From Nitrospiraceae bacterium (GTDB taxonomy: Bacteria; Nitrospirota; Nitrospiria; Nitrospirales; Nitrospiraceae), in NCBI GenBank assembly GCA_037442105.1, contig JBBIQV010000003.1:63670-127669 (forward strand): a stretch of 64,000 bases of DNA, given 5' to 3'. Both the position numbers and the translations under genes were made by a program. The notes below the pieces were generated by a model, which was not told the origin of the DNA, did not search any database, and was given only the letters and a program-made list of their open reading frames with translations. Shown here piece after piece: positions 1-45,933 of this stretch. Position 1 is the stretch's first letter; each line of letters starts with the position of its first letter.

Positions 1-704
1 TGCGGGTGCAGGACCAGGGCGGGCTGTTTGCCACCCAATCTTTCACCGTGACGGTAGCAGGGGGCACACCGCTCCCGGCCGGGCTGGTGGCGGCCTACGC
101 CTTCAACGAAGGGACCGGCGCCACGGTGGCCGATGCCACGGGCCGGGGCCACACCGGGACTCTCGTCGGAGCCACCTGGACTCCGTCCGGCCGGTATGGG
201 GCGGCCCTGGTCTTCAACGGGACCAATGCGCGAGTGACGGTGCCGGATGCGGCGGATCTGGATCTGACCACCGGCGTGACTCTGGAAGCCTGGGTCTACC
301 CGTCGGCGGCCGGCGGCGGCGCCTGGCGGACCGTGATCACCAAAGATAATGCAGCGAACCTCTCCTATCTCCTCTATGCGAATACGGATACGAATCAGCC
401 GGGGATGTTCGTGGGCAGCACCTTCCAGCAACAAACGACGGGTGGTGCGACGCTCGCGGCCAACACCTGGACGCACCTGACGGGCACCTACGACGGCGCG
501 ACCATACGGTTGTACGTCAACGGGGTGCAGGTGGCCAGTCGGGCACAAACTGCACCGATGGCGACGAACAATGATTTGCTGTCCATCGGCGGCAGCAGCG
601 TGTGGGGTGAATGGTTCGCCGGCCGGCTCGATGAGTTGCGCATCTACAACCGCGCGCTCACGGCTGCAGAGATTCAGGCGGATATGGCGGCGCCGTTGCC
701 GTGA
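1..704 (+). CDS. 3' end of a secreted/surface protein: end of an Ig-like repeat plus a LamG/concanavalin-A-like jellyroll domain (5' part outside window)
   Basis: Open frame from the window edge (RVQDQGGLFATQSFTVTV), then LamG-type motifs (TLEAWVYP, WTHLTGTYDG, LYVNG, FAGRLDELRIYNRALT). Near-identical to the C-terminus of 3395..6502. Confidence 0.85.
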   Translation, partial: RVQDQGGLFATQSFTVTVAGGTPLPAGLVAAYAFNEGTGATVADATGRGHTGTLVGATWTPSGRYGAALVFNGTNARVTVPDAADLDLTTGVTLEAWVYPSAAGGGAWRTVITKDNAANLSYLLYANTDTNQPGMFVGSTFQQQTTGGATLAANTWTHLTGTYDGATIRLYVNGVQVASRAQTAPMATNNDLLSIGGSSVWGEWFAGRLDELRIYNRALTAAEIQADMAAPLP

Positions 705-781
705 GCGGCAACTCGGCGAAGAGGAAATAGGAGAATGAATTGCAAGCATCGCTTGGAGAGTCCCTTAAGGAGGAAACTATC

Positions 782-2002
782 ATGACACATGCTCGAGCAT
801 ATCTTCTCTCACTGCTCGCGCTCATCGGCGTGAGCCTGGTCGGGGTGGATGCCCATGCTGCCGCCAACGTGCAATGTCCCGGCGACACGAACGGCGACGC
901 GATCATAGACGCACCGATTCCGGGGCGGCAGATCGTGTGCAAGCACCTCTCGGCCGGCGATGGATTCATCTCCATGGCTGACGGCAAGACCCTCTACATT
1001 TTCGGGTTCTCGGACCTGACGGGAGTTCCTCTGGCGGAAGCCCTGAGCCGGGGGGTTCTCGCGGCCAATTTCACGGCTCCAACGCTGAGTTTCAAGGAAG
1101 GGGACGAGGTCTACCTCACCCTGACCAATGCCGGCACCTTAACCCGTCCGGACCTCTTCGATCCCCACACGGTCCACTACCATGGATATCCGAACGCCGC
1201 CCCGGTGTTTGACGGGGAGCCGATGGCCTCAATCGCGATCAACCAGCAGTCCAGTCTCACGTACTACTACAACGTCGTCGAACCGGGAACCTTCATGTAT
1301 CACTGCCACGTGGAAGCGACGGAGCACATGCAGATGGGCATGCTCGGCAATCTCTACGTCCATCCCAGACAAGACGGCACGTCCTACACGTTCGGGGGAA
1401 AGACCTTTACGAAGTTCGCCTACAACGACGGCGACGGCTCGACCGGCTACGACGTGGAATATCCCATTCAGATCGGTTCGATGGATCCCGTGTTTCACGA
1501 TCTCCATCTCGGAGTCCAGCCGCTGCCCTTCGCGAATATGAAGGATACGTATGCCGTTCTGAACGGGCGCGGTTATCCCGATACCGTGAATCCCAATCCT
1601 CTGCCCCCTCCGGCGGAGAAAGTCGCGGCGGGTCACGCCTCGGCCAACGACTCCTCCCAGCGGGATTCTTCGCTCATCACCGCGACGGCGGGTCAGAAGA
1701 TTCTCCTCCGGATCAGCAATCTGAACGTCACGAAAGACTACACGCTGGCCACGATGGGATTGAGGATGAAAATCGTCGGCATGGGGTCTCATATCCTGCG
1801 CGGGCCAGGAGGCGCCTCGCTCTATTACGAGACGAATAGCGTGACGGTCGGCAGCGGTGAGGCGATGGAGGCTTTGATCGACACCACCGGCGTCGCTCCG
1901 GGCACCTATTTTCTGTATACGACCAATCTGAATTACCTCAGCAACAACGTGGAAGATTTCGGCGGGATGATGACTGAAATCAGAATCCTGCCGGGTGCCT
2001 GA
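782..2002 (+). CDS. Secreted two-domain multicopper oxidase subunit A (complete type-1 Cu site and half of the trinuclear-site ligands in domain 1)
   Basis: RBS aggagg before ATG 782; Sec signal ending AHA. Motifs HTVHYHG and YHCHVEATEHMQMGM. Domain 2 lacks the His motifs. Confidence 0.85.
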   Translation: MTHARAYLLSLLALIGVSLVGVDAHAAANVQCPGDTNGDAIIDAPIPGRQIVCKHLSAGDGFISMADGKTLYIFGFSDLTGVPLAEALSRGVLAANFTAPTLSFKEGDEVYLTLTNAGTLTRPDLFDPHTVHYHGYPNAAPVFDGEPMASIAINQQSSLTYYYNVVEPGTFMYHCHVEATEHMQMGMLGNLYVHPRQDGTSYTFGGKTFTKFAYNDGDGSTGYDVEYPIQIGSMDPVFHDLHLGVQPLPFANMKDTYAVLNGRGYPDTVNPNPLPPPAEKVAAGHASANDSSQRDSSLITATAGQKILLRISNLNVTKDYTLATMGLRMKIVGMGSHILRGPGGASLYYETNSVTVGSGEAMEALIDTTGVAPGTYFLYTTNLNYLSNNVEDFGGMMTEIRILPGA

Positions 2003-2038
2003 TGCGCCTGTGGAAGGAATTGAAGAAGGAGACCAGCA

Positions 2039-3325
2039 ATGATGCACACAATTAGGAGAATGGCCCGGCTCGGTTCGCTTTTCGTCACGCTGGTCGGTGT
2101 GATGCTGTCGGCCACACCGTCGAATGCCGTAGTCGATGGAGTGCCGGGGCCGACCTTCGCCCTTGTCGCAAAGGCCGGATACATCTCGACAGGCGATGGA
2201 CAGAGCTTACTCGCCTGGGGTTACGCCAACGGTGCTGGCCTGATGCAATATCCCGGTCCCACGCTGATCGTGAACCAAGGGGACACGGTGTCAATCACGC
2301 TCACGAATGAGTTGAGCGTCCCGGTGTCGATCGTGTTTCCTGGACAGCAGAATGTGCAGGCCAGCGGTGGAAACGCCGGCACGCTCACGCGTGAAGCGCC
2401 GGCCGGCGCTCCGGCGACCCCGGGTGGGCCGGTGACCTATACCTTCATCGCCTCGCGCCCCGGCACCTATCTCTATCACAGCGGGACCCAACCGGAGTTG
2501 CAGGTGGAGATGGGGCTTGTCGGCGCGTTGGTCGTGCGGCCGACCGGTGCCGATCCTCTTCACCATGCCTATGACCATCCGAACACAGCGTTCGACCACG
2601 AATATCTTTTTCTTCTGACGGAGATGGACCCGAACATCCATCGGTTGATGGATCTGGGATTGGGGAGTCAGGTCGATTTCACCAAGTACCATCCCACGCT
2701 CTGGTTCATCAACGGGCGAAACGGCCCGGATACCATGGCGGCTGCTGCAGCGCCGTGGTTTCCGCACCAACCCTACAACTGTCTGCCGTTGATGCATCCG
2801 GGCAATAAAGTGCTCTTGCGTCTCATCGGCGCGGGTCGAGACCGGCATCCGTTTCATCACCATGGGAACAATACGTGGGTGATTGCGCGCGATGGACGAA
2901 TGTTGCAAAGCGTGTCAGGAGTCGGTCCCGACCTGGCCGAATCCAACTTCACTATTCTGACTGTGCCTGGGGAGACGGTCGACGCCATTTTCGAATGGAA
3001 CGGCAAAGGGTTGGGTTGGGACATCTACGGCCATACCAGCACGGACCCGCTCGAACCGAATGAGTATGCGCCGGATCATGGCAAGCCCCTCCCGGCGACG
3101 TTGCCCGAGCTTCAGAGTCTCACGTTGGGCGAGGCCTGGAGCGGCAGTCCGTTTCTTGGAAAGGTGGAACCGTTACCGCCCGGCCAAGGGGGGATGAACC
3201 CGTTGGGGGCATTCCCGTTCATGTGGCATTCGCATAACGAAGTGGAACTGGTCAATGACGACATTTTCCCCGGCGGGATGTTGACCATGATGCTGGTGCT
3301 GCCACCGAGTGCACCGATTCCTTGA
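2039..3325 (+). CDS. Secreted two-domain multicopper oxidase subunit B (His motifs in domain 2 only, no T1 Cys)
   Basis: Signal peptide; cupredoxin-type PGPTLIVNQGD; degenerate YLYHSG; HPFHHHG and MWHSHN in domain 2. Confidence 0.85.
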   Translation: MMHTIRRMARLGSLFVTLVGVMLSATPSNAVVDGVPGPTFALVAKAGYISTGDGQSLLAWGYANGAGLMQYPGPTLIVNQGDTVSITLTNELSVPVSIVFPGQQNVQASGGNAGTLTREAPAGAPATPGGPVTYTFIASRPGTYLYHSGTQPELQVEMGLVGALVVRPTGADPLHHAYDHPNTAFDHEYLFLLTEMDPNIHRLMDLGLGSQVDFTKYHPTLWFINGRNGPDTMAAAAAPWFPHQPYNCLPLMHPGNKVLLRLIGAGRDRHPFHHHGNNTWVIARDGRMLQSVSGVGPDLAESNFTILTVPGETVDAIFEWNGKGLGWDIYGHTSTDPLEPNEYAPDHGKPLPATLPELQSLTLGEAWSGSPFLGKVEPLPPGQGGMNPLGAFPFMWHSHNEVELVNDDIFPGGMLTMMLVLPPSAPIP

Positions 3326-3394
3326 GAATAACGGCTGCTAACTGAGAATTTGAACGCGGCGAGTTTTTACAACAATCAAGCGGGAGTGACGGCG

Positions 3395-6300
3395 ATGCGC
3401 ATGCTTAACGGGTTGTTCAGAAGGTTGGGGTTGGCACTGGCCGGGGTCGCGCTCATGTGCGCGCCCGCATGGTCGATCGACTACTACCTCCAGGCTGAGC
3501 GCTTTCTGATGACGATGCCTGATGGGACCAGCGCTCCGATGTGGGGCTATGCGCAATATAGCGATAACACGTTCACAACCCTGGTCAAACCGGCGTCCGT
3601 GCCGGGTCCCCTGCTTGAAGTGCCGGCCGGGGACTTGTCGGGGCTCACGATCCATCTGAAAAACAACCTTCCGACTCTCAACGGTCAGCCGGTCCCGACG
3701 TCGATCGTCATTCCGGCACAGCCTGCCGCCTTAGCGCCGGCGACGTTTACGGATGCGCAGGGTCGCACAAGGGTCCGGTCGTTTACGACGGAAACCGCTC
3801 CGGGGACGGTCGGAATCTATAGTTGGCCGACCCTCAAGCCGGGCACATACCTGTATGAGAGCGGGACCCATCCACAAGTTCAGATCCAGATGGGGCTGTA
3901 TGGCGCAGTAGTACGTGACTCCGCCTCCGCCCCCCTCGAGGCCTATCCGGCGATTCCGTATACCGCACACCACGTATTGCTTTTCAGTGAAGTGGATCCA
4001 ACCCTGCACGCGGCGGTCGATAACAATACCTATGGGACCCCTCCGATTACGAGCACGATCAATTATGTCCCAAAGTATTTCCTCGTCAATGGAGCTGCTT
4101 ATGGTCAGACCACGGCGCAAATCGATGCCGGCCAAACCGGTGACCGAGTGCTGTTGAGACTCCTGAATGCAGGATTAGAGTCCCACGTGCCCACCCTCCT
4201 GGGAGCCTACTTCCAGCTTGTGGCGGAGGATGGGAGCCCTCTGCCGTACCCAAAGGAGCAGTATGCGGCGCACCTGGCAGCGGGAAAAACGCTCGATGCG
4301 ATTTGGACACCCGCGACCGATGGCGTGTACCCGATTTATGACCGGCGCTTGCGGCAAGGAATGCTCGCGCAGCTCGCGGTGGGAACGAACCGTCCGCCTG
4401 TCATTACCTCCGCGCCGGTGACCACGGCGACAGTGGGCATTGCCTATAGCTATCAGGTACTCGCCACAGATCCGAACGCGGGCGATGTGCTGACCTATAG
4501 CCTGACGACGGCACCGACCGGCATGACGATCAGCGTCACCGGCTTGATTGGTTGGACCCCAACGGCGGCGCAAGTTGGGCCCCAGGCGATGACGGTACGG
4601 GTGCAGGACCAGGGTGGGCTGTTCGTAACCCAGTCCTTCACGGTGACGGTAGCGGCGGCCAATATCGCGCCGGCTATCACCTCGACGCCGATCCTCACGG
4701 CGGCAGCAGGCACAGCCTATAGCTACCAGGTGGTGGCGACCGATCCGAACGTGGGTGACGTGCTGACCTATAGCCTGACGACGGCACCCACCGGCATGAC
4801 GATCAGCGCCACCGGCTTGATTGGTTGGACGCCGACGGCGGCGCAGGCCGGCCCTCAGGCCGTCACGGTACGGGTGCAGGACCAGGGCGGGCTGTTCACT
4901 ACGCAGAGCTTCACCGTAACAGTCGCGGCAGCCGGCCCGGCGGTCGTCAGCATCACGCTGCGTAACGCCACTGCTGCCGGAGATCCGATTATTGTTCAAC
5001 CTCTGGTCAATGGGGCAGACCTCAACCTGAGCGCGCTCTGCGGCGGCTGCCAGGTAAATTTCCAGGCCGTCACCTCGCCGGCAACGATCACGGGCGGGAG
5101 CGTCAGGCTGGTTCTGACCGGCGCGACGGCTCAGGCTCGGAATGACAACACAAACCCCTACACACTGCCGGCCAATCCAGGTGGCAACTATGCGGGGATC
5201 ACATTGAACCCCGGTTCGCACACCCTCACCGCGACACCCTATAGCGGGACCAATGCTACGGGAACCCCGGGCACGCCTTTGACGATCACGTTCACGGTAG
5301 GGGCTGCGAATGTGGCGCCGGCGATTACTTCGACAGCGATCACGACAGCGGTAGCCACCTATCCCTATAGCTATCAGGTCGCTGCGACCGATCCGAACGC
5401 GGGCGACACGCTGACCTATAGTCTGACGGCGGCGCCCGCCGGCATGACGATCAGCGGAACCGGCTTGATCAGTTGGACGCCGACGGCGGCCCAGGTGAGT
5501 CCGCCGCAGCCATTGGTCACGGTACGGGTGCAGGATCAGGGAGGCCTGTTCGCCACCCAATCCTTCAACATCGCAGTGGCAGCCAACCAGGCACCGGCGA
5601 TCACCTCGACGATACCGCCCACGACAGCCACAGTGGGTGTGGCCTACAGCTATCAAGTGGTGGCGACGGACCCGAATGCGGGAACGACGTTGACCTACAG
5701 TCTCACCACTGCGCCGGCGGGCATGACGATCAGTGCCACTGGTTTGATCAGTTGGACGCCGACGGCGGCGCAAGTCGGCCCGCAAGCCGTGACGGTACGG
5801 GTGCAGGATCAGGGCGGGCTGTTTGCCACCCAATCCTTCACCGTGACGGTTGCAGGCACTCCGCCGCCGCTTCCGGCCGGCTTAGTGGCGGCTTATGCCT
5901 TCAATGAAGGGACCGGCACGACGGTGGCCGATGCCACGGGCCGTGGTCACACCGGGACTTTCGTCGGAGCCACCTGGACTCCGTCCGGCCGGTACGGGGC
6001 GGCTCTGGTGTTCAATGGAACCAATGCGCGGGTGACAGTCCCCGATGCGGCAGATCTGGATCTGACCACCGGCGTGACGCTGGAAGCCTGGGTCTACCCA
6101 ACAGCGGCCGGTGGCGGCGCCTGGCGGACCGTAATCACCAAAGATAATGCGGCAAATATCTCCTACCTCCTCTATGCCAATACGGACACAAACAATCCGG
6201 GGATGTTTGTGGGCGGCACCTGGCAGCAGCAAGTCGTGGGTGGCTCGACACTAGCGGCCAATGTCTGGACGCACCTGGCGGGTACCTACGACGGCGCCAC

Positions 6301-6502
6301 CATCAGGTTGTACGTCAACGGAGTGCAGGTTGCCAGTCGGGCGCAAACCGCGCCGATCGCGACGAACAATGATCTGCTCTCCATCGGCGGCAGCAGCGTG
6401 TGGGGCGAATGGTTCGCCGGCCGGCTCGATGAGCTGCGCATCTACAACCGCGCGCTCACGGCGGCGGAGATTCAGGCAGATAGCGCAGCACCGCTGCCGT
6501 GA
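3395..6502 (+). CDS. Secreted MCO-like protein lacking the canonical Cu-ligand motifs, fused to four Ig-like (putative Ig/cadherin-like) repeats, an inserted beta domain and a C-terminal LamG domain
   Basis: RBS gggag before ATG 3395; signal peptide; PGPLLEV and YLYESGTHPQVQIQMGLYG (degenerate cupredoxin). Four NxxPxITS...YSYQVxATDPN...VRVQDQGG repeats; LamG tail. Confidence 0.85.
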   Translation: MRMLNGLFRRLGLALAGVALMCAPAWSIDYYLQAERFLMTMPDGTSAPMWGYAQYSDNTFTTLVKPASVPGPLLEVPAGDLSGLTIHLKNNLPTLNGQPVPTSIVIPAQPAALAPATFTDAQGRTRVRSFTTETAPGTVGIYSWPTLKPGTYLYESGTHPQVQIQMGLYGAVVRDSASAPLEAYPAIPYTAHHVLLFSEVDPTLHAAVDNNTYGTPPITSTINYVPKYFLVNGAAYGQTTAQIDAGQTGDRVLLRLLNAGLESHVPTLLGAYFQLVAEDGSPLPYPKEQYAAHLAAGKTLDAIWTPATDGVYPIYDRRLRQGMLAQLAVGTNRPPVITSAPVTTATVGIAYSYQVLATDPNAGDVLTYSLTTAPTGMTISVTGLIGWTPTAAQVGPQAMTVRVQDQGGLFVTQSFTVTVAAANIAPAITSTPILTAAAGTAYSYQVVATDPNVGDVLTYSLTTAPTGMTISATGLIGWTPTAAQAGPQAVTVRVQDQGGLFTTQSFTVTVAAAGPAVVSITLRNATAAGDPIIVQPLVNGADLNLSALCGGCQVNFQAVTSPATITGGSVRLVLTGATAQARNDNTNPYTLPANPGGNYAGITLNPGSHTLTATPYSGTNATGTPGTPLTITFTVGAANVAPAITSTAITTAVATYPYSYQVAATDPNAGDTLTYSLTAAPAGMTISGTGLISWTPTAAQVSPPQPLVTVRVQDQGGLFATQSFNIAVAANQAPAITSTIPPTTATVGVAYSYQVVATDPNAGTTLTYSLTTAPAGMTISATGLISWTPTAAQVGPQAVTVRVQDQGGLFATQSFTVTVAGTPPPLPAGLVAAYAFNEGTGTTVADATGRGHTGTFVGATWTPSGRYGAALVFNGTNARVTVPDAADLDLTTGVTLEAWVYPTAAGGGAWRTVITKDNAANISYLLYANTDTNNPGMFVGGTWQQQVVGGSTLAANVWTHLAGTYDGATIRLYVNGVQVASRAQTAPIATNNDLLSIGGSSVWGEWFAGRLDELRIYNRALTAAEIQADSAAPLP
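4388..5855 (+). repeat. Four ~270-bp intragenic Ig-like repeat units (approx. 4388-4660, 4661-4930, 5309-5585, 5585-5855)
   Basis: Recurrent DNA and peptide blocks, e.g. ctgacctatagcctgacgacggcacc and gtacgggtgcaggaccaggg. Confidence 0.85.
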
Positions 6503-6545: not shown

Positions 6546-7058
6546 ATGGCGATGCAGAAGAGTCAACCAGCGGCTGGGACTGCTCGGTTTGCCAACGGAC
6601 TACTCGGGACGGTGTGGAGGGTGGCGTTCAGTTTGACCCTCGCCACAGCCGGTTCTGCCGGTGCTCATGGGGGGGACCATGGGCCTTTCACCACCCGGTC
6701 CGTGTCGCCGGTGCAGCGACTGGCCATCGAACAGGCCTGGGGCATCAGCGTGGAAGGAATCCGGCTGACGGCCGCCGGCCATATGTTGGATTTTCGTTAC
6801 CGCGTGCTCGATCCGGGGAAGGCCGGGCGACTGATCCATCCGAAGATGGGGCTGCTCGTCATTGAGGAGAAGAGTGGAGCCGAATTGCCCGTTCCGACCA
6901 TGACCAAAGTCGGTGCGCTCAAGCAAACCAGGAGTCATTTACATCCGGAACGGACCTATTCGGTCCTCTTTGCCAATCTGAACGGCAAGGTCAAAGCGGA
7001 TGCCGTCGTGACGGTCATGTTGGGTGACCTGAGGATCGAACACCTGGTGGTTGAATAG
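6546..7058 (+). CDS. Exported hypothetical protein associated with the MCO cluster
   Basis: RBS gaggag near ATG 6546/6552; signal-like segment ending AGA, followed by HGGDH; compact beta-rich domain. Confidence 0.7.
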   Translation: MAMQKSQPAAGTARFANGLLGTVWRVAFSLTLATAGSAGAHGGDHGPFTTRSVSPVQRLAIEQAWGISVEGIRLTAAGHMLDFRYRVLDPGKAGRLIHPKMGLLVIEEKSGAELPVPTMTKVGALKQTRSHLHPERTYSVLFANLNGKVKADAVVTVMLGDLRIEHLVVE

Positions 7059-7069: not shown

Positions 7070-8875
7070 ATGAAGGCTTGGTGGGTTCGTCTCGCGGCGT
7101 TAGCCTGTGGCTGTTTTCTGGCGTGGGATGGTCACGCCGCGGTGATTGCTCCTGAACTCGACGCGGCGATGCAGTCGCCGGGCGCGGGAGAGGAAATTCC
7201 AATAATTGTGACCTTCCATAAAAAGGTCGACCCCAAGTCCTTCAAAGACGACGATAAACGGGTGCGGCGTTTCAAGCTTCTTCAGGCTCTCAAGCGGGAA
7301 GCGGAGGGGGAACATAAATCGGTTCGGATCTTCGCCGAGGGAAGGGGAGGAAAAAAGATCAAGCATCTATGGGCCGGTCGCGCGCTGGCGTTAACCGCCT
7401 GTCCGGATGTCATTCGGGTGCTTGCCTCGCTGCCGAGTGTGGAGTCCATCAGGTTGGATGCGGTCATCCATGCTCCGACCACGACCTATGTGTCTACTGC
7501 CACGCCTGAATGGAACATCAGCGCTGTCAAGGCGCCTGACCTGTGGAGCCTTGGGTTTAAAGGACAGGGTGTGGTCGTGGCGAATCTGGATACAGGGGTA
7601 GATGCTCAGCATCCCGACCTTTCGACGCAATGGCGTGGCGGGACCAACAGTTGGTACGACCCGAACAGCGAACACCCGACGCCGCACGATGCCGACGGCC
7701 ATGGCACGCAGACGATGAGCTTGCTCGTCGGGCGCGCCGCCGGAGGTACGGCGATCGGGATGGCTCCCGATGCGAAGTGGATTGCCGCAAAAATTTTCAA
7801 TGATGCGGGTTTGTCGCAGGAGAGCGTGATCCACCAGAGCTTGCAGTGGGTGCTCGATCCGGACGGCAATCCGGCGACGGACGATGCGCCGGACGTCGTG
7901 AACCTGTCGTGGGGGCTCTCGGGGGTGAACACCTGCAACGCCGTGTTCCAGGCCGAAATGGAGGCTCTGAAGACGGCCGGGATCTCCGTGGTCTTGTCGG
8001 CCGGCAACTCTGGTCCGAGCGCCTCGACCAGTGTCAGCCCAGCCAATAATCCTGGCCAGATGTCAGCCGGCTCGGTGGACGACCGGCTCAACGTGTCGAC
8101 GTTCAGTAGTCGCGGCCCTTCCGCTTGCGACGGCGGGATTTTCCCGACGGTGGTGGCCCCCGGCGAAAACATCGTGACGGCCGATCTGTCTTTCGGCGGA
8201 CTTGCGGTTTACACGACCGTCGCCGGGACCTCGTTTGCTGCCCCGCACGTCTCCGGGTCGATGGCGCTCCTGTTGAGTGCGGTACCGACCGCCAACGTCG
8301 GCGATCTCGAGTCGGCGGTGACTCGCACGGCTGTCGATCTGGGCACGGCCGGACCCGATCAGGACTCGGGACATGGTCTGATCGATACCCTAGCCGCCTA
8401 TGAAGCACTACGCAACGGCGGGCAGGGGGCCATGGATGCAGACGGTGATGGACATCCCGGTACGGTGGACTGCAACGATCAGAATCCGGCGGTCCATCCC
8501 GGTGAGCGGGAGATCAAGTACGACGGGATTGATCAGGATTGCAACGGCTACGATCTGACCATCACGATCGCGAAGGCGAAGTACAACTCGAAGAAACACC
8601 TGCTGGTCGTTGAGGCCACCAGTGTACTGAGAGCCAATGCCAGGCTGGAACTGGTCGGGTTCGGTCCTATGAGGTGGAACGCCGCGAGAGGACTGTGGGT
8701 GTTCCGGGCGCCGCTGCCGGCAAGTCCTTCTCAGATTACGGTGAAGGGAGTTGAAGGTCAGGAGAGTGCGCTCGTGGCAGCCGGTCAAATCGGGTCGAAG
8801 CCCAAGAACTCGAAGGGCAAGGGCCACCGAGGAGCCGACGCCCATCCGGACGAGGTTGAAGACGACGAGTCCTGA
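7070..8875 (+). CDS. Secreted S8 (subtilisin-like) serine protease with a MopE-like Asp/Cys metal-binding repeat
   Basis: Catalytic triad motifs NLDTG, GHGT and GTSFAAPHV; oxyanion SAGN; DADGDG...DCND...DGIDQDCNG repeat; signal peptide and propeptide. Confidence 0.9.
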   Translation: MKAWWVRLAALACGCFLAWDGHAAVIAPELDAAMQSPGAGEEIPIIVTFHKKVDPKSFKDDDKRVRRFKLLQALKREAEGEHKSVRIFAEGRGGKKIKHLWAGRALALTACPDVIRVLASLPSVESIRLDAVIHAPTTTYVSTATPEWNISAVKAPDLWSLGFKGQGVVVANLDTGVDAQHPDLSTQWRGGTNSWYDPNSEHPTPHDADGHGTQTMSLLVGRAAGGTAIGMAPDAKWIAAKIFNDAGLSQESVIHQSLQWVLDPDGNPATDDAPDVVNLSWGLSGVNTCNAVFQAEMEALKTAGISVVLSAGNSGPSASTSVSPANNPGQMSAGSVDDRLNVSTFSSRGPSACDGGIFPTVVAPGENIVTADLSFGGLAVYTTVAGTSFAAPHVSGSMALLLSAVPTANVGDLESAVTRTAVDLGTAGPDQDSGHGLIDTLAAYEALRNGGQGAMDADGDGHPGTVDCNDQNPAVHPGEREIKYDGIDQDCNGYDLTITIAKAKYNSKKHLLVVEATSVLRANARLELVGFGPMRWNAARGLWVFRAPLPASPSQITVKGVEGQESALVAAGQIGSKPKNSKGKGHRGADAHPDEVEDDES

Positions 8876-9377: not shown

Positions 9378-9389
9378 CAGAAGAGGGTC

Positions 9390-32669: not shown

Positions 32670-33015
32670 GACCTGCTATTGATCTACCACGTTACACGCA
32701 ATTCCTGAGCCTAAATCGGAAAATGTGCCCTGATCAGACTGTGTGGTTTTGACCTACCTTTTTGTTCAAAACCGTCTGGGCCTTCTGTGCATGCGCTGAA
32801 AGCCGGAACGTCCAGTCCAGACATTTCAACGACATAAGGAAAGCGTTCCATAGTGGTCCCGGACTTGCTTGCCCTTGATGGGATCAACGGTGGGATTATT
32901 TTCCCAATATTGCTGATTGTCGCTCGTGGGGCGAACACACCAAATTCTAACGATAGGCAGAAGTTGGCTGGCTGCAGGCGTTTGTGAACAGTCTGGCTGG
33001 GTTCTGAACTTGTCG
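32670..33015. promoter_or_regulatory. Divergent promoter region of the porin-cytochrome cluster, with palindromes
   Basis: Non-coding gap between divergent genes; TTGAT-GGG-ATCAA at 32875-32887 and TGGGA-N6-TCCCA at 32891-32906. Confidence 0.4.
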
Positions 33016-37856: not shown

Positions 37857-38036
37857 CCCGCATTATTCATGAAGCTTCTGCTGCAAGCGCGGATATGCGG
37901 CTGCAACGGGCAGTCTCGGCGCTCAGCCCTTCAACATACTGCGCGAGTATGCTTCAGGGCTTCGCACCTCCGAGTGCCCGTTTCGCTTCGCATCTGCGCG
38001 CTTTCGCGACGAACCGTCATGAATAATGCGGGCTAG
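37854..38036. mobile_element. ~180-bp MITE-like element with 19-bp perfect terminal inverted repeats
   Basis: tagcccgcattattcatga (37854-37872) and tcatgaataatgcgggcta (38017-38035); TAG at both ends; nested internal inverted repeats. Confidence 0.8.
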
Positions 38037-38046
38037 GAGCTTTCCG

Positions 38047-38790: not shown

Positions 38791-38969
38791 TGGCGTGGGG
38801 AAGTCTCTCGGAGTTTCTCATGATGGGTGGATATGGACTCTACGTGTGGCCCTCGATCGGAGCCACTGCCCTGAGCATGGGGTGGGAAGTGCTGGCTTTG
38901 CGCCGACGGCGCGCTACGGCGGTTCGTTCAGTTCCTCAGCAGCGAACGGTTGAAGGTAAACAACGATGA
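38790..38969 (+). CDS. ccmD: Haem exporter protein D (59 aa, absent from the ORF track)
   Basis: Hand translation [24 protein letters not shown]...RRRR; overlaps the ccmC stop and the ccmE start. Confidence 0.88.
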
Positions 38970-39442
38970 GCCCACGCCGGAAACGGTTTGCGATGATCGG
39001 GATCGGCTTGGTCGCGCTCGCGCTCGCTGCGGCATTGGTGCTGAATGCGTTCCGCAACAATCTGGTCTTCTTCTTCACCCCCACCCAGGTGGCGAACGGC
39101 GAAGTGCCGCAGGGACGAAGTTTCCGCATCGGCGGATTGGTGGAGGCGGGCAGCCTTTTGCGGGAGAGTGACGGGCTGACCGTTCATTTCGCCGTGACGG
39201 ATATGGCGAAACGTGTTCCGGTGACGTACAAAGGAATTCTTCCTGATTTGTTCAAGGAGGGGAAAGGCGCTGTTGCTCAAGGACGACTAGGCCCAGATGG
39301 CGTCTTTCTGGCGAGCGAGGTGCTCGCCAAACACGACGAGAACTATATGCCGCCTGAAGCGGCGGAGGCCTTGGCGAAAGCGAAGGCTTCCGGCGCGCAG
39401 AGCGCCCGACCACCAAGCGGTCGTGCCGCGCTAGCAAACTAA
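38966..39442 (+). CDS. ccmE: Haem chaperone
   Basis: [27 protein letters not shown]. Confidence 0.96.
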
Positions 39443-39443
39443 C

Positions 39444-41432
39444 ATGGTCCCAGAAATCGGTCACTTCGCTCTGATTCTCTCCCTGTGTATCGCGGTGGTG
39501 CAGGGAACTGTGCCGATCGCCGGAGCGGCGATCGGCAACGCTATGTGGATGGCAGTGGCCAAGCCCGCAGCCCGCGGCCAGTTTCTGTTTGTGATGATCG
39601 CTTTCGGCTGTCTGGCCTATGCCTTTGCAAGCAACGACTTCTCCGTGCTTTATGTCGCGGCCAACTCGAACTCGCAACTCCCGTTGTCTTATCGCCTGGC
39701 CGCCGTATGGGGGGCTCATGAGGGCTCGCTGCTTCTGTGGACGCTCATCCTGACCCTTTGGATGGTGGCCGTGACTCTGTTCTCCGAGCACTTGCCGCAG
39801 GCGATGCAGGCCCGCATTTTGGGTGTGATGGGGCTGGTGAGCTTCGGATTTCTCCTGTTCGTATTGACGGTGTCCAATCCATTCGAACGTCTAATCCCGG
39901 CTGCGGCGGACGGACGCGATCTGAACCCGTTACTACAGGACCCCGGTATGGTGCTCCACCCTCCGATGCTCTACATGGGCTATGTGGGTTTCTCTGTCGC
40001 CTTCTCCTTCGCCATTGCGGCTCTGCTGGGTGGCAACCTCGATGCAGCCTGGGCACGCTGGTCTCGCCCTTGGACGACCGTGGCCTGGAGTTTCTTGACC
40101 CTCGGGATTGCCCTGGGGAGCGGGTGGGCCTATTACGAGCTGGGTTGGGGTGGCTGGTGGTTTTGGGACCCGGTTGAAAATGCCTCCTTCATGCCCTGGT
40201 TGGCAGGAACTGCCTTGATTCACTCGCTGGCCGTTACCGATAAACGCGGCGGTTTCAAAGTCTGGACCGTCCTCCTGGCTATTCTCGCCTTCTCGTTGAG
40301 CCTTCTCGGAACTTTTCTCGTCCGGTCCGGAGTCTTGACCTCGGTCCACGCGTTTGCAACTGATCCGAAGCGCGGCCTCTTTATCCTCACTTTCCTGGCC
40401 GTGGTGGTCGGCGGGTCGCTGGTCCTCTACGCCTGGCGAGCCCCTCGTGTGGGCTTGGGGGGTGGGTTTACCCTTGTCTCGCGCGAGTCCGTGTTGCTTG
40501 CGAATAATGTCTTGTTGGTTGTGGCAACCGGTTCGGTGATGCTCGGCACACTCTACCCGTTATTTCTCGACGCGCTGGGTCTTGGGAAAATCTCCGTCGG
40601 CCCTCCGTACTTCGATACGGTCTTCGTTCCGCTCGTGACGCCCGCTCTTTTTCTGATGGGGATTGGGCCGATCGCGCAGTGGAAGAACGCTGAGCTGCCC
40701 GCCCTCGCAACGCGGTTCCGCTGGGCGTTCGGAGTCAGCCTCGCAACCGCTGTTCTCCTGCCGTTTGTGCTGGGAAAATGGACGCCGCTCATCAGCCTTG
40801 GTCTGTTGCTGGCAGGCTGGATTCTGGCAACCACTGTGGTCAACGTCCGCGAACGACTCGCCCATGCAGTGGGTAATCACATGCTCAGCCGGCTGATTTG
40901 TCTCCCACGGGCATACTGGGGAATGCTGCTCGCCCATTGCGGGATTGCGGTGTTCATCGTCGGCGTGACCCTGGTGAAGGGATATGAAATCGAGAAAGAC
41001 CTGCGCATGAGCGTCGGAGAGACGGCGTCGATCGGCGGGTACACGTTCCGGTTTGAAGGGGTAGAGGAACTGAAGGGGCCCAACTATGTTGCCGCTCGCG
41101 GCACGTTTCGCGTGACCAAGGATGGTCGCGACATCACCGAGATGCGTCCGGAGAAGCGAATCTATACCATCCAGAATCAACCGATGACGGAAGCCGCCAT
41201 TGATTCCGGACTGTTGCGCGACCTGTATGTATCGTTGGGCGAGCCGCTCGACGGTGATGCGTGGAGTGTACGGCTCTATTACAAGCCGTTTGTGAATTGG
41301 ATTTGGGGCGGATGTTTAATCATGGCGCTGGGCGGAGCCTGGGCGGTCAGTGATCGCCGGTACCGTTTGACGATGCGGCGCGAGCAGACAACCGTACCGG
41401 CGACGGTCCAGCCGGTGGCCCAAGAAGTCTGA
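39444..41432 (+). CDS. ccmF: Cytochrome c haem lyase subunit
   Basis: WGAHEGS, HPPMLY, WGGWWFWDPVEN, SVHAF. Confidence 0.96.
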   Translation: MVPEIGHFALILSLCIAVVQGTVPIAGAAIGNAMWMAVAKPAARGQFLFVMIAFGCLAYAFASNDFSVLYVAANSNSQLPLSYRLAAVWGAHEGSLLLWTLILTLWMVAVTLFSEHLPQAMQARILGVMGLVSFGFLLFVLTVSNPFERLIPAAADGRDLNPLLQDPGMVLHPPMLYMGYVGFSVAFSFAIAALLGGNLDAAWARWSRPWTTVAWSFLTLGIALGSGWAYYELGWGGWWFWDPVENASFMPWLAGTALIHSLAVTDKRGGFKVWTVLLAILAFSLSLLGTFLVRSGVLTSVHAFATDPKRGLFILTFLAVVVGGSLVLYAWRAPRVGLGGGFTLVSRESVLLANNVLLVVATGSVMLGTLYPLFLDALGLGKISVGPPYFDTVFVPLVTPALFLMGIGPIAQWKNAELPALATRFRWAFGVSLATAVLLPFVLGKWTPLISLGLLLAGWILATTVVNVRERLAHAVGNHMLSRLICLPRAYWGMLLAHCGIAVFIVGVTLVKGYEIEKDLRMSVGETASIGGYTFRFEGVEELKGPNYVAARGTFRVTKDGRDITEMRPEKRIYTIQNQPMTEAAIDSGLLRDLYVSLGEPLDGDAWSVRLYYKPFVNWIWGGCLIMALGGAWAVSDRRYRLTMRREQTTVPATVQPVAQEV

Positions 41433-41959
41433 TGAAACGATTTCTCCTGCCGCTTGCGGTCTTTGTGGTACTGGTGGGATTTCTCGGCGTCGGGTTGAAG
41501 CTCGACCCGCGCGAGGTACCGTCGCCTCTCATCGGTAAGCCGGCGCCGGATTTTTCGCTTCCCCAGTTGCACAATCCGGAGAAGGTCTTTTCGCCAAAAG
41601 ACGCTGTCGGAAAAGTCTGGTTGCTGAATGTATGGGCCTCCTGGTGCGGCGGTTGCCGCGATGAACATCCTGTGCTCATGCGGTTGGCGCAAAGCAGTCA
41701 GGTGCCCCTCTACGGCATGGATTACAAAGATCGTCGGGACGAGGCGTTGACGTGGCTGAGGCAGTGGGGCAACCCGTACCCCGTGACGGTAATGGATGAG
41801 ACCGGTCGTGCCGGAATCGATTACGGCGTGTATGGCGTGCCGGAGACCTATGTGATCGATAAGACCGGGGTCATCCGCTATAAACAGATCGGTCCCCTCG
41901 ATGAGGAAACGGTGCAGGGGAAGATTCTGCCTCTCGTTCAGGAGTTACAGCAGAAATGA
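41432..41959 (+). CDS. ccmG: Thiol:disulfide oxidoreductase DsbE/CcmG
   Basis: WASWCGGC, GVYGVPET. Confidence 0.93.
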   Translation: MKRFLLPLAVFVVLVGFLGVGLKLDPREVPSPLIGKPAPDFSLPQLHNPEKVFSPKDAVGKVWLLNVWASWCGGCRDEHPVLMRLAQSSQVPLYGMDYKDRRDEALTWLRQWGNPYPVTVMDETGRAGIDYGVYGVPETYVIDKTGVIRYKQIGPLDEETVQGKILPLVQELQQK

Positions 41960-42417
41960 AACGGCTGTTGTTGGTCCTCCTGCTCGTTCCATGGATTGCG
42001 GCCGCGGAAGAAACCTGGCCGTCGGCTGATAATGCGCGCGTTGAAGCTCGTCTGAAAGCATTAGCCATCGAATTGCGCTGCCTCGTCTGTCAGAACCAAA
42101 CACTGGCTGATTCCAACGCCCCGCTGGCCGAAGATTTGCGCCGAGAGATTCGCGCAATGATCGCCAGGAACATGAGCGACAAGGATATTATCGAATTCCT
42201 GGTGGCACGCTACGGTGATTTTGTGCTCTACCGGCCGCCATTGAAGGCCACCACGATCCTACTCTGGCTTGGACCTTTTGTCTTGCTTGCGATCGGCGGC
42301 ATGACGTTCGTGCTGGCGTTGAAGCGAAGACAGAGGAAATTAGCCGCTGTGGTCCTCTCGGAGGAAGAGCACGACCGAGCGGCGCAGTTGCTTTCAGAAG
42401 GAACTCGTCGGTCATGA
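41956..42417 (+). CDS. ccmH: Cytochrome c biogenesis protein CcmH (CycL)
   Basis: LRCLVCQNQ, RYGDFVLYRP. Confidence 0.94.
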   Translation: MKRLLLVLLLVPWIAAAEETWPSADNARVEARLKALAIELRCLVCQNQTLADSNAPLAEDLRREIRAMIARNMSDKDIIEFLVARYGDFVLYRPPLKATTILLWLGPFVLLAIGGMTFVLALKRRQRKLAAVVLSEEEHDRAAQLLSEGTRRS

Positions 42418-43694
42418 CCTGGCTTTTTTGGATCATTGCCGCGGCGATGGCTCTCATTGCCCTTGCGATCCTGGTATGGCCTCTGTTGAAACGTACTCCG
42501 CCGGTCTCAAACGCGGACCGTGACAAGACGCTGGTGGTCTACCGGCAGCACGTCGTCGAGTTGGAGCAAGACCTGAAGAACGGTGTTGTGACCGACACGC
42601 AGTACCAGCAAGCACGCCGAGAGTTGGAGCATCGCCTTCTGCAAGAAATAAACGAGTCGGAGGCAGTGCAGCCTCCACCAAGCTTCCAATTCAATAGCCG
42701 TGCGATGGCGTTGGCGCTTGCCGGGCTGGTTCCTTTGGTGAGCGTGCTGCTGTATCTGAAGTTTGGGAATTTGCCGGCGTTCACACATCCGACCGTCTCG
42801 ACGACCCAAGTGCGCGCGGGGACAGAGTATGACCATCGGTCGGGGGGAGGACTCGACACGTTGGCCGAGCGACTCAAACAGCGGCTACAGGAAAACCCGA
42901 GCGACGGAGCAGGCTGGGCCCTCCTGGCCCGTTCCTATGTGGAATTGGAACGCCATGCGGAAGGAGTCATAGCATTTGAAAAAGCTGCGACCATAATCCC
43001 CGATGATGCCCAGTTGCTGGCTGATTACGCCGACGCATTAGGTGTCATTCACGGTCGTAAGCTCGATGGGAAACCCGAACGATTGGTCGCGCAGGCGTTG
43101 GATCTCGATCCGCACAACCTGAAGGCTTTGATGCTGGCAGGGACCATCGCCTACGACCACAAGGACTATTCTCGTGCCCTCAAATATTGGGAGCAGGCGC
43201 GCACGGAGTTGCCTCCTGATGTCGAGCCGGAGATCAAGCAGGAGCTGACCGCGAACGTGAATGAAGTGAGGAATCTCATCGGAGGGTCCCGGAAGGTGGT
43301 GGTGAGTTATGAAGAAACCTCTCCTACCCGGGCCGCTTCAGCCAAACAAAATGCAGCGATTACAGGAAAGGTAAGTGTGGCCCCCGGTTTGGCAAGCAAA
43401 GGCTCGTTCACAGACACCTTGTTCGTGTTTGCACGGGCGGTCGAGGGACCACCCATGCCGGTCGCGATCGTTCGCGCCACCAAAAAGGATCTGCCGTTCA
43501 CGTTTCGTCTCGATGACTCGAATAGCCCTATGTCTTCGCGAAAACTCTCGGAAGCGGGAGCTGTGGAGATCGTCGCTCGTTTGTCGAAATCCGGCGACGC
43601 CGTGCCGAAAAGTGGAGATCTGCAAGGAACGAGCAAGCCGGTAAAGCCGGGCGCAGATGGGATTCAGGTCGTGATCGATACGGAGTTGCCGTAA
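42414..43694 (+). CDS. ccmI: Cytochrome c biogenesis TPR protein CcmI (CycH)
   Basis: Two TMs, TPRs (GWALLARSY), C-terminal Ig-like domain (LPFTFRLDD, ARLSKSG). Confidence 0.9.
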   Translation: MTWLFWIIAAAMALIALAILVWPLLKRTPPVSNADRDKTLVVYRQHVVELEQDLKNGVVTDTQYQQARRELEHRLLQEINESEAVQPPPSFQFNSRAMALALAGLVPLVSVLLYLKFGNLPAFTHPTVSTTQVRAGTEYDHRSGGGLDTLAERLKQRLQENPSDGAGWALLARSYVELERHAEGVIAFEKAATIIPDDAQLLADYADALGVIHGRKLDGKPERLVAQALDLDPHNLKALMLAGTIAYDHKDYSRALKYWEQARTELPPDVEPEIKQELTANVNEVRNLIGGSRKVVVSYEETSPTRAASAKQNAAITGKVSVAPGLASKGSFTDTLFVFARAVEGPPMPVAIVRATKKDLPFTFRLDDSNSPMSSRKLSEAGAVEIVARLSKSGDAVPKSGDLQGTSKPVKPGADGIQVVIDTELP

Positions 43695-43709
43695 CGTTTG
43701 GAATTCCCG

Positions 43710-45023
43710 ATGTCTCTCTCCCTCGTCACCACGTTGCTGTATCTGCTCCCGATCGTCCTTGCCTTGGCGCTCTACCACCGCCGCCATCGGAAAAAAGAAA
43801 GTCGCGATCGGGCCCGCTTGGAAGAAACGAAGACGGCCGGAATCACCGAGCCGTTGACACTGCATCCCGTCATCAACCCGAACCGCTGCATCGGCTCCGG
43901 CGCATGCGTGAAAGTTTGCCCCGAAAGGGCTCTCGGGATTGTGAAAGGCAAAGCGGTGCTGGTTCAGCCGGACCATTGTATCGGCCATGGCGCCTGCGAA
44001 GCGGCCTGTCCTGTTGAAGGGATTCAGCTCGTCTTCGGCACGGAAAAACGCGGCATTGATATCCCGCATGTGAAGCCGACATTCGAAACCAATGTTCCCG
44101 GTATCTTCATCGCCGGCGAGCTGGGCGGGATGGGACTCATTCGCAAAGGGATCGAGCAGGGGAAGCGGGCGATGGACTCTGTTCGCAAGAACAAGGGTGG
44201 CGGGAGCGAGTTGGACGTTGTGATCGTCGGCGCGGGGCCGGCCGGTCTCTCCGCCTCGCTGGCCGCCAAAGAATATGGACTCCGCTTTGTGACGATTGAG
44301 CAAGAAGACTCCCTGGGCGGGTCCGTGTATCACTATCCGCGCCGGAAACTCGCGATGACGGCGCCCATGAAACTCCCGATCGTGGGCAAGTTCAACCGAT
44401 ACGAAATCAGCAAGGAGGAACTCCTTGCATTCTGGAACAAGGTCGTTTGCGACACCGGCCTCAAGATCAATTTCAACGAACGGATGGAGGCTATCAGCAA
44501 TACGGGAAGCGGGTTCATCGTCAAAACTTCCAAGTCCAGCTACAAGGCCAAGAACGTTCTGCTTGCCATCGGTCGGCGGGGCACGCCGCGCAAGCTGGAA
44601 GTGCCCGGTGAGGAGCAGCCCAAGGTCGTCTATCGCTTGATTGACGCAGAACAGTATCGAGGGCGGCATGTGTTAGTGGTGGGCGGCGGTGATAGCGCCG
44701 CCGAGGCCGCCTTGGCCGTGGCGGATGAACCGGGAACTACGGTCACCTTATCCTGCCGGGGAGACGAAATTTTCACGCGACCAAAAGAAAAGAACCGCCA
44801 GAGACTAAAACAGGCTGACTCTCAGGGCAAAATCAAAGTGTATCTGAAATGCCATGTGAAAGAGATCGGTCCCGACTGGATCATTCTCGCTCAAGAGGGG
44901 AAGACGATCAAACTGAAGAACGATGCCGCCATCATTTGTGCCGGCGGGACCCTTCCCACGCCCATGCTCAAAGAGATGGGTGTGATGGTCGACACCTACT
45001 ACGGCACGCCTGTTCCGAAATAA
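43710..45023 (+). CDS. Membrane-anchored ferredoxin-domain FAD/NAD(P)H oxidoreductase (TrxB/FNR-like)
   Basis: N-terminal TM; CIGSGACVKVCP and CIGHGACEAACP; VGAGPAG and VGGGDSA. Confidence 0.85.
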   Translation: MSLSLVTTLLYLLPIVLALALYHRRHRKKESRDRARLEETKTAGITEPLTLHPVINPNRCIGSGACVKVCPERALGIVKGKAVLVQPDHCIGHGACEAACPVEGIQLVFGTEKRGIDIPHVKPTFETNVPGIFIAGELGGMGLIRKGIEQGKRAMDSVRKNKGGGSELDVVIVGAGPAGLSASLAAKEYGLRFVTIEQEDSLGGSVYHYPRRKLAMTAPMKLPIVGKFNRYEISKEELLAFWNKVVCDTGLKINFNERMEAISNTGSGFIVKTSKSSYKAKNVLLAIGRRGTPRKLEVPGEEQPKVVYRLIDAEQYRGRHVLVVGGGDSAAEAALAVADEPGTTVTLSCRGDEIFTRPKEKNRQRLKQADSQGKIKVYLKCHVKEIGPDWIILAQEGKTIKLKNDAAIICAGGTLPTPMLKEMGVMVDTYYGTPVPK

Positions 45024-45053
45024 GCCGCCGGGACGGCAGGATGTCCCGGCGGT
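45024..45053. terminator. GC-rich hairpin between convergent genes
   Basis: gccgccgggac-N8-gtcccggcggt directly after the stop codon; no U-tract. Confidence 0.4.
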
Positions 45054-45096
45054 CTCACATCCGCCACAAGAATGCTTCGAGCAATGTGAATCGTCA

Positions 45097-45933
45097 TCAA
45101 GTGGGGCTTTTGGATTCGAAATCCAGTTGTTCCTCGAAGTGGTAAACTCCCACTCCAAGGCGGACCCGACCAGTTCCTTTCACGGAGGGATTCGCGTCGC
45201 GGTCATGATGAGACAGCCATCGGTCCAGGGCTTCCAAGAGTTCCTGTCCCCACGCTGCCGCTATCGCGTGAAATTCTTCAGCCGCAGCGAGAGGCACATT
45301 ATCGTACATCACCTTTCGCTGGAAACGTGGTTTGGCGGGCTTCTGGTAGAGGTTGTGGTCGATGGTGGCAATGAGGTCGGCGGTATCAGATCCGAGGACG
45401 CCGAGCTTTTCGATCGGACCTTTCTGTGGAACATAGCCACGCGCCAAGAGGCAGATGCGACCATCCTTCAGACACTTCACGGCTCCCACGCTAAGTAGTT
45501 CGTCCAGCACCGCGCGGACCGGAATATCGCCGCTATAACGTTTAACCAGTTCACTGAAGGAGGTCCGTTTGCCTTCCATGCGCAGAGGGGATGGATGGCC
45601 TTTCCCATCACCAAAGTCGGAGTCTCGCACCCAGCCGGTGATCACGCGCGCCGCACGGTTGTAACGTTCTGTTGTCGCCGGGTCGCTTTCGCTCGGCTTT
45701 TGCAGGATACGATGCACTTCTTTTCTGGTGAGTCCTGTCAGAATAGAAATCCTGGATATCGTTTGCTTTTTGTTGGCGATCCCGAATTCCGTTTGGGCCA
45801 CCTCGATGTAGACCTGTTTAGCCAGTTCGGCAAAGGTCTTAAAGGACAAATGGTTTCGCAGCAGGATGCGGACAAGCGGGTAGAGAAGTTTCAGGGTAGC
45901 GGCGGAAAGTGCTTGAGCATGAGACGCCTTCAT
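45097..45933 (-). CDS. DUF6502-like protein with HTH-like N-terminus
   Basis: PLVRILLR...FAELAK...SRISILTGLTRKEV and SF-ELVKRYSGD-P-RAVLDELL pattern recalled for this family. Confidence 0.7.
   Translation of the reverse strand: MKASHAQALSAATLKLLYPLVRILLRNHLSFKTFAELAKQVYIEVAQTEFGIANKKQTISRISILTGLTRKEVHRILQKPSESDPATTERYNRAARVITGWVRDSDFGDGKGHPSPLRMEGKRTSFSELVKRYSGDIPVRAVLDELLSVGAVKCLKDGRICLLARGYVPQKGPIEKLGVLGSDTADLIATIDHNLYQKPAKPRFQRKVMYDNVPLAAAEEFHAIAAAWGQELLEALDRWLSHHDRDANPSVKGTGRVRLGVGVYHFEEQLDFESKSPT

Follow-up and report, generated by a model that had tools for sequence, protein, structure and literature searches.

The type-C two-domain multicopper oxidases (MCOs) known so far (3G5W, 2ZWN) are homotrimers with all copper ligands in one chain; the type-1 site lies in domain 1, and the trinuclear site is formed between domain 1 and domain 2 of the neighbouring subunit. 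Porin-cytochrome complexes of type 3 (PCC3) combine an outer-membrane porin, a repeat-rich extracellular multihaem cytochrome (MHC), a 24-haem MHC of the periplasm plus an inner-membrane protein with two histidine motifs (PMC5566968; PMC9900912), and the published text, as far as it was accessible, lists Alpha-, Beta- and Gammaproteobacteria as hosts. Nitrospira are unexpectedly abundant in sand filters that remove iron and manganese, and metal oxidation by them has already been proposed from scattered genes for cluster-3 Cyc2 and MCOs, without a mechanism (10.1101/2024.12.25.630300); the available text of that report does not contain the words 'PCC' or 'porin'. Here we describe a stretch of 64,000 nucleotides from a Nitrospiraceae genome (the window, G000:C3:63670-127669; the host genome G000 is 2.8 Mb and 87% complete) that holds most of an island with a split MCO, a type II secretion system (T2SS), a Cyc2 chain, a PCC3 conduit and a cytochrome c maturation (ccm) operon. 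Something similar to each module is already known, mostly from iron oxidizers of the Gallionellaceae. What is new is the way in which these known or previously predicted parts are arranged, and the host is an unexpected one. The literature covered, which leaves out most subscription journals, yielded no report that deals with PCC3 in Nitrospira, with this island or with a two-domain MCO of heteromeric build. The accessible text of PMC6137239 mentions, without detail, a 'pcc-like' system of a Nitrospira metagenome-assembled genome, and multihaem clusters are described in other nitrifier families (PMC11995701).

The gene classes that an earlier note had listed for this DNA (cupredoxin-fold genes, T2SS, cytochrome-porin, porin, ccmA-I and an Fe-S/FAD enzyme) are all present by direct reading and by Pfam and NCBIfam matches. 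Its count of at least 39 haem motifs in four genes is recovered as 1 + 2 + 24 + 11 = 38 CxxCH motifs plus one CX3CH. We read the island as three separable modules that serve one niche and were often gained together: the oxidase with its T2SS, the Cyc2 chain, and the PCC3 conduit with ccm. The genes, the division of copper ligands between subunits and the linkage patterns are read directly from the loci.

Co-occurrence was assessed in one draw of 301 genomes of the family, in which kinship inflates the counts, and we do not rely on Fisher tests. Oxidase subunit B is found in five of the 301, and all five also carry the PCC3 porin, Cyc2 and an island-like secretin. A secretin search at E 1e-60 matched 217 genomes owing to a common family of 31–41% identity; at 50% identity or more, 16 genomes were counted as island-like, 13 of them with both porin and Cyc2. 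The modules thus do occur together elsewhere. On genome G274 the Cyc2 chain, T2SS, oxidase cassette, ccm and porin share one contig free of N, in an order unlike that of the window, and G250 and G292 also cluster them, again in another order. The proposal of the earlier note that the pieces form one apparatus is not supported: 25 of the 43 porin genomes have neither a Cyc2 orthologue nor an island-like T2SS, and 18 of the 36 Cyc2 genomes have neither porin nor island-like T2SS. In G099 the modules lie on separate contigs, and G011, G029 and G001 carry PCC3-ccm without the oxidase. The porin was found in two of five oxidase-cassette genomes that are not Nitrospira, so the link between oxidase and PCC3 is loose outside the family.

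The four conduit genes are adjacent at 29898-36530 and agree with the sequence definition of He et al. (PMC5566968). The periplasmic-type cytochrome (29898..31697, minus strand) has 24 CxxCH motifs, or 599/24 = 25 residues per haem (22–39 in the PCC3 definition). The inner-membrane protein (31713..32669, minus strand), a predicted dihaem b protein of 318 residues (roughly 300 in the PCC3 definition), contains two WX3HX13H motifs and SGXXG; a hydropathy scan gives four helices against five predicted in the paper. The extracellular-type repeat cytochrome (32917..34160, plus strand) is broken by a gap at 33490-33589, with 5 + 6 CxxCH and one CX3CH on either side of the 100 N (at least 11 CxxCH). 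Its content of T, S, A and G is 39%, in line with the T/S/A/G-rich extracellular MHC of the definition. Intact orthologues carry 17–43 haems, so the assembly gap hides haems. Both cytochromes have signal-peptide-like hydrophobic N-termini, and their extracellular and periplasmic placement is predicted. The outer-membrane protein (34185..36530, plus strand; TPR and predicted barrel) has no Pfam match and is 33–35% identical to the porin-position genes of PCC3-type loci in G328 and G330, which hold the same four genes.

The porin is present in 43 of the 301 genomes (two as fragments) and 7 of 37 genera, carriers including the amoB-positive G088, G099 and G113. The inner-membrane gene was found in all six porin genomes that lack it in the fetched stretch, and in neither of two controls. 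A predicted trans-envelope multihaem conduit would therefore exist in about one in seven of the family genomes sampled. Several differences from the published PCC3 can be observed besides the host. The ccmA-I genes directly follow the porin, and the locus has constant Fe-S/FAD and TPR-peptidase genes that are absent from the accessible PCC3 text. PCC_1 of the Manganitrophaceae consists of a porin and a dodecahaem cytochrome and is not a match, as the window instead has the 24-haem and the gap-broken repeat cytochromes. The TPR and peptidase-MA protein (28242..29831, minus strand) is encoded after the 24-haem gene here and in nearly all PCC3 loci read, and a 40% paralogue lies on contig C6.

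The gene after ccmI encodes a membrane-anchored oxidoreductase with two Fe-S motifs and an FAD/NAD(P) module (43698..45023, plus strand; TrxR/FNR/YpdA fold), its flavin domain being of the TrxR/FNR type without CxxC. This gene is a constant companion of the PCC3 porin, which is new here. It stands beside the porin in all 20 other porin loci examined (19 over a 380-residue threshold; full length in G328), remains there in G099, G113, G133 and G277, where ccmA-H are gone, and is also at the porin in two Gallionellaceae-family genomes without ccm at that site. At 16 ccm loci without porin, it is whole in one (G035), broken in one (G184) and missing in 14; some of these stretches end soon after ccmI, and in G035 the porin is on another short contig. 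As an NAD(P)-binding flavoprotein stays with PCC3 even when ccm is lost, the NAD(P)H pool is the likely connection of the inner end, and we infer that the conduit has a cytoplasmic NAD(P)H end. The flavoprotein is thus a handle on the direction of electrons through PCC3. A ferredoxin-NADP reductase gene has been reported near a different PCC group (PMC13264449). In the four genomes without ccmA-H at the porin, the PCC3 loci are shrunk to porin, ccmI and Fe-S/FAD (for example L088:10250-15400 in G113); ccmA-H lie elsewhere (beside hao in G113) and ccmI is still beside the porin.

In comammox, a ccm operon linked to hao has been described (10.1101/138586), and the occurrence of system I in a few canonical Nitrospira was called intriguing and left unexplained (PMC6852473). 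The ccmABCDEFGHI operon of the window (36556..43694, plus strand; ccmD 38790-38969) has the same gene order, and CcmF is about 80% identical. In contrast to the hao-linked operons, it sits downstream of the PCC3 porin, with the Fe-S/FAD gene after it. The claim that the island has its own Ccm system was borne out, the operon being complete and tied to the conduit as the T2SS is tied to the oxidase; G000 also carries system II ccsA on contig C45. CcmF was detected in 153 of the 301 genomes: 90 of 100 in genus g9, 53 of 71 in g18 and 10 of 130 others. Outside g9 and g18, the comammox-containing genera, eight of the ten ccmF genomes have the PCC3 porin and all eight porin genomes have ccmF. This match offers an answer to why a few canonical Nitrospira hold system I.

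The ccm operon adjoins hao in seven genomes. In quick IQ-TREE trees of CcmF and CcmG (45 and 37 rows), labelled from gene context, all Nitrospiraceae copies form one group (SH-aLRT 100). The hao-linked copies are a subgroup (SH-aLRT 96 and 99) nested among PCC3-linked ones, and the window copy branches early; backbone support is only 85–93. Eight copies from the family of amoB-positive betaproteobacterial genomes fall apart from these (mean identity 65% versus 80%). Approximately unbiased (AU) tests, run on 24 of the 37 rows after removal of 13 (four long branches among them; LG+G4) and with hypotheses picked after the trees were seen, reject a clade of hao-linked and ammonia-oxidizer-family copies (p 1e-82) as well as the PCC3-linked copies as a clade (p 0.007). 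In these trees the hao-linked ccm of comammox is nested among PCC3-linked ccm, a result that is new here. We lean slightly towards the view that the haem-maturation operon of the conduit was the ancestor of the ccm operon beside hao; if so, an electron-exchange island would have supplied a prerequisite for complete nitrification. The complete genome G184 retains a frameshifted Fe-S/FAD remnant between ccmI and hao (L107:14600-15300), and none was seen in 14 other loci of this kind.

The oxidase cassette starts at the left edge of the window. Three MCO-fold genes do lie in tandem at 740-6502, as the earlier note had it, but they are not three enzymes: the ligand sets of the first two are incomplete, and the third lacks ligands altogether. 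Subunit A (740..2002, plus strand) carries the type-1 copper site and four trinuclear-site histidines in domain 1 in 33 of 33 aligned rows, and its domain 2 is without ligands. Subunit B (2039..3325, plus strand) has the other four histidines in domain 2 (HPxHxH in 42 of 42 rows, HSH in 41 of 42); its domain 1 has no ligands, and the type-1 Cys is replaced by Ser. The 41 loci compared were retrieved by two patterns from B domain 1, so that the lack of ligands in this domain is not an independent result. Subunit C (3350..6502, plus strand) consists of two ligand-free cupredoxin domains, Ig (He_PIG) repeats and LamG, with no ligand motif in 39 rows. The best PDB match of A is 3G5W, and the type-1 site in domain 1 is that of a type-C enzyme. 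Whereas the eight trinuclear histidines of such enzymes are in one polypeptide, here they are divided between two paralogues, four in A and four in B. Judged by their ligand sets, the oxidases are not of the MnxG, MofA or OmpB kind: those are single large chains with all ligands, while the window has a split type-C two-domain enzyme made of subunits with partial sets.

Upstream of A, the window begins with the C-terminal Ig/LamG end of a large secreted β-helix/SdrD protein (the giant; 3..704, plus strand, continuing across a 100-N gap). Downstream of C follow a conserved small hypothetical protein (6549..7058, plus strand), for which no family was found in Atlas or Pfam, and a subtilisin-family (S8) protease with a MopE-type copper-binding motif (7070..8875, plus strand). 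Alongside B, the 41 loci, many of which are cut by contig ends, contain C (38), the giant (34), a separate A (33), the small gene (33) and the protease (24). Fusions of the giant occur with A (five loci) and with C (three genomes), their joints free of N or stop, which marks the giant as a part of the predicted oxidase complex. An apparent natural A-B fusion in L073 was ruled out, as its joint is an N-gap and B retains its own signal peptide. The LamG ends of the giant (3-704) and of subunit C (5880-6500) are near-identical as protein, suggesting recent domain copying. In two other phyla, a dihaem cytochrome c peroxidase of the MauG type lies in or beside the cassette (L050:12937-14541, L053:926-2449).

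The closest described counterpart is the cluster Slit_1812-1818 of Sideroxydans lithotrophicus ES-1, with three extracellular MCO genes in tandem (PMC5566968; 10.1101/2024.09.20.614158). The Gallionellaceae-family genomes G631, G587 and G338 carry this architecture: A, B, a larger ligand-free third gene (a C-giant fusion with adhesin and lyase-type domains), the small hypothetical gene and a cytochrome, as published. Their A and B are 39–42% identical to those of the window. By comparison, the window has the third subunit and the giant as separate genes and an added S8 protease, and the cytochrome and SCO genes are absent from its cassette. The accessible text of the ES-1 papers treats the MCO genes as separate oxidases and does not remark on the ligand split. 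In the family of G328, which includes a Sideroxyarcus locus, oxidase matches were found in 8 of 101 genomes.

Surface Mn oxidation by Pseudomonas putida needs a dedicated T2SS and ccmF (PMC13689576). The window resembles the system of strain GB-1 (MnxG/McoA, Xcm T2SS, ccmF, MnxS1S2R) in that a surface MCO lies beside a dedicated T2SS, with ccm and two sensor kinases plus regulator; in GB-1 the oxidase family is another one, and the accessible text has no multihaem conduit or Cyc2. The T2SS of the window (8937..18594, plus strand) comprises gspG, F, E, four L/M/N/O-like genes, a TPR-secretin and three further pseudopilins, so that ATPase, platform, secretin and pseudopilins are in one locus. 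GspG scores above the NCBIfam cut-off, and the GspE, GspF and GspD matches are below equivalog cut-offs. No prepilin peptidase was detected among the 54 open reading frames (ORFs) scanned. In gene order it may resemble Xcm and Geobacter Oxp. The same gene order is found in G274, G292, G202, G113, G133, G149 and G328, and the T2SS adjoins the oxidase cassette in G631 and G587 and lies in the same contig region in G328. A DUF5666-PilZ protein is encoded at 18591..19559 (plus strand). A secretin relative of 50–52% identity occurs in 11 g18 genomes and stands beside another MCO in both in which the upstream genes were read. A second surface MCO set (a Tat-type MCO, an MCO with He_PIG repeats and a SCO-cytochrome fusion; L085:3450-10210 in G113, L094 in G149) adjoins this related T2SS in g18 genomes.

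Cyc2 in Nitrospirales was already known (PMC9040806). The cytochrome-porin of the window (24673..26043, minus strand), a fused monohaem protein, has a signal peptide and the defining motifs AXPXFAR[Q/K][T/Y] (here AXPXFARKY), a single N-terminal CxxCH and PXL (10.1101/228056), as do the cluster-3 proteins of Nitrospira. Its AlphaFold2 model (147 sequences; pLDDT 94.9) has 16 long strands and an N-terminal haem domain, and the top Foldseek matches are general 16-strand porins. The Cyc2-like and PCC3-like identities given by the earlier note stand. In contrast to the described proteins, this Cyc2 is encoded in an operon inside a larger island, with a dihaem c-type cytochrome (23896..24669, minus strand), a predicted blue-copper (cupredoxin) protein (23141..23947, minus strand) and two kinases. 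The blue-copper candidate has His, Cys, His and Met invariant in five of five aligned rows, and its family matches are weak (Cupredoxin_1, E 0.004; amicyanin, E 0.009). We take this neighbourhood to recall the cyc2-rusticyanin-cyc1 chain of Acidithiobacillus. The hybrid sensor kinase (20560..23127, plus strand) adjoins cyc2 in G274, G250, G292 and G099, and the PAS sensor kinase (HisKA_3; 26133..28139, minus strand) and a LuxR-type regulator are adjacent to it in G274, G250 and G099. Cyc2 matches were obtained in 54 of the 301 genomes at E 1e-10 and in 36 at E 1e-90 or better.

The host is Nitrospira-like, as the earlier note had supposed. The four best oxidase-B loci among the 41 are from Nitrospira sp. 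(68–69% identity), named homologues of the window Cyc2 are from Nitrospira, and NxrA-type genes are present in the same-genus G001 as well as in G011, G274 and G250. NxrA was not found in G000, which at 87% completeness is not taken as absence. The amoB profile, positive in three of five genomes, had no match in G000.

Taken together, the three modules may give the cell redox contact with outside minerals or dissolved metals, a reading for which we see the balance as even. A, B and C would assemble into a mixed ring that has one type-1 copper plus one trinuclear site at the interface of A domain 1 and B domain 2, and the Ig/LamG arms together with the giant scaffold would anchor it to the surface. 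The adjacent T2SS is predicted to export the split oxidase, whose substrate would be a one-electron donor outside the cell (most likely Fe(II) or Mn(II)) and which would hand the electrons on to O2. Through the cytochrome-porin, electrons would move into the cell and reach the respiratory chain by way of the blue-copper protein and the dihaem cytochrome. PCC3 would cross both membranes, its inner end likely at the NAD(P)H pool, for which export is downhill. The modules would share one niche, micro-oxic and metal-rich surfaces, and none would need the others. The island names concrete, testable machinery for the metal oxidation proposed for Nitrospira, and a cluster with the architecture of the G631 cassette (Slit_1812-1818) was more abundant on magnetite in Sideroxydans ES-1 (10.1101/2024.09.20.614158).

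A number of points weigh against redox contact with metals. The oxidase cassette (5,160 homologues) is widespread in phyla without known metal metabolism, and its equivalence to Slit_1816-1818 is one of architecture and not of named sequence. The Cyc2 sequences of Nitrospira were assigned to cluster 3 and thereby separated from the proven metal oxidases (10.1101/2024.12.25.630300); the cluster with a proven neutral-pH iron oxidase is cluster 1. Genus g31 yields Cyc2-like matches in 18 of 37 genomes, none with the PCC3 porin. PCC3 function is itself a prediction (PMC9900912), and both PCC3 clusters of ES-1 were down-regulated on Fe(II) and judged uninvolved there (PMC8788666). In Sideroxydans CL21, only one inner-membrane gene rose with iron-oxidizing ability (10.1101/2025.02.27.639646), which argues against iron oxidation by PCC3. 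With G250 and G274 near-identical, the five oxidase carriers count as roughly three independent lineages; the 11 secretin genomes of g18 may belong to a single clade, and no direct physical link between oxidase and conduit was seen at any locus.

Of the alternatives, the one that survives best is that the surface modules do not serve energy from metals: the oxidase would act on phenolic or humic matter or scavenge O2, and PCC3 would carry electrons from NAD(P)H out of the cell, be it to acquire iron, to balance redox or to protect the cell. The nearest solved relatives are two-domain laccase-like enzymes, the cassette is found across many phyla, PCC3 has a flavoprotein partner, and PCC3 also occurs in plant and animal symbionts, for which metal redox is not known (PMC5566968). 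The enrichment in Gallionellaceae-family genomes, the magnetite response of the architecturally matching cluster and the coupling with the Cyc2 chain speak against it, and we consider it doubtful. It is likewise unlikely that Nitrospira-family nitrifiers, comammox included, use a Gallionellaceae-style Fe(II)/Mn(II)-mineral kit for energy and also owe their hao-linked ccm to the conduit; lithotrophic use of the kit, taken separately, is about equally unlikely.

A further alternative is that all pieces form one inward-only, integrated apparatus that lets the cell grow chemolithotrophically on Fe(II) or Mn(II). Every oxidase carrier has all modules, the same gene families are clustered in Gallionellaceae-family genomes, no NxrA match was obtained in G000, and Ca. 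Manganitrophus of the same phylum uses Cyc2 and a PCC candidate (PMC9040806). Against this, most porin and Cyc2 genomes lack the other modules, an MCO passes electrons straight to O2 and conserves no energy, and Manganitrophus PCC_1 is reported absent outside its family (both PMC9040806). The missing NxrA comes from an incomplete genome, with NxrA-type genes in G001, G274 and G250, and PCC3 is lower on Fe(II) in ES-1. This makes such an apparatus rather improbable.

An integration hot spot that gathered unrelated accessory modules without shared purpose appears even less probable. The module order varies between genomes, the modules are apart in G011 and G099, and a tyrosine integrase and tRNA-Arg(cct) lie just past the PCC3 end in two genomes (L024:660-1842 in G250, L029:14899-16225 in G292). 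However, genera g1 and g9 both have this set in a cluster, at 55–80% protein identity, and a regulator-kinase pair is common to the oxidase and Cyc2 ends. No tRNA was found in the window or in the 14.5 kb upstream.

The probability of a scaffold chimera across the N-gaps or of a mis-binned contig, for which the three gaps within the region or at its edge would speak, is negligible, as the gaps interrupt genes that relatives have intact, the same-genus G001 matches both flanks at 76–84% DNA identity and read depth is even in three runs. The gaps (just before base 1, 13725-13743 and 33490-33589) each fall within one gene, namely the giant, a T2SS gene and the repeat-rich cytochrome, which are single ORFs in relatives, and no N is present at the junctions between modules. 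Reads from three public runs, X1–X3 (one subsurface and two hot-spring metagenomes, each possibly a source of this assembly), cover 13750-33480 evenly (30 of 30 bins, depth 5–17), and contigs bridge the cyc2, kinase and 24-haem genes. X2 and X3 show 17 differences from the window and are perhaps a single data set deposited twice.

The DNA matching G001 ends at C3:56,786 and resumes, as a separate block, at window position 46,108, so the island measures about 53 kb. It begins about 7 kb to the left of the window, since 3-704 encodes the end of a large secreted protein (about 2,000 residues) whose start is at G000:C3:58184. A LuxR-type regulator (G000:C3:56794-57657) marks the left end and a DUF6502 protein (45097..45933, minus strand) the right end near 46,000. 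An empty site in G001 could not be demonstrated, as the two flanks match different contigs, and the chromosomal neighbours of PCC3-ccm in G001 differ from those in the window. The 10-kb bins over the giant/oxidase and multihaem genes are at the 99th and 97th percentile of 250 for tetranucleotide deviation, and the remaining island bins at the 32nd to 86th; these outliers were set aside as proof of transfer, as they likely reflect protein composition.

A DpnII/MboI-type restriction endonuclease gene lies immediately left of the island (L001:4544-6028). Beyond its right end, a membrane protein with a weak COX1 match (E 1e-6) is encoded at 51882-53162, and a short extragenic repeat at 59440-59500 has dozens of 45–100-bp matches in G001. 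Near the island in other genomes, a DUF6502-DUF5666-cytochrome-NHL cluster with a further 30–39-haem cytochrome can be observed (L020:6630-12980 in G274, L026, L030, L093, L101), of which the window retains DUF6502 only.

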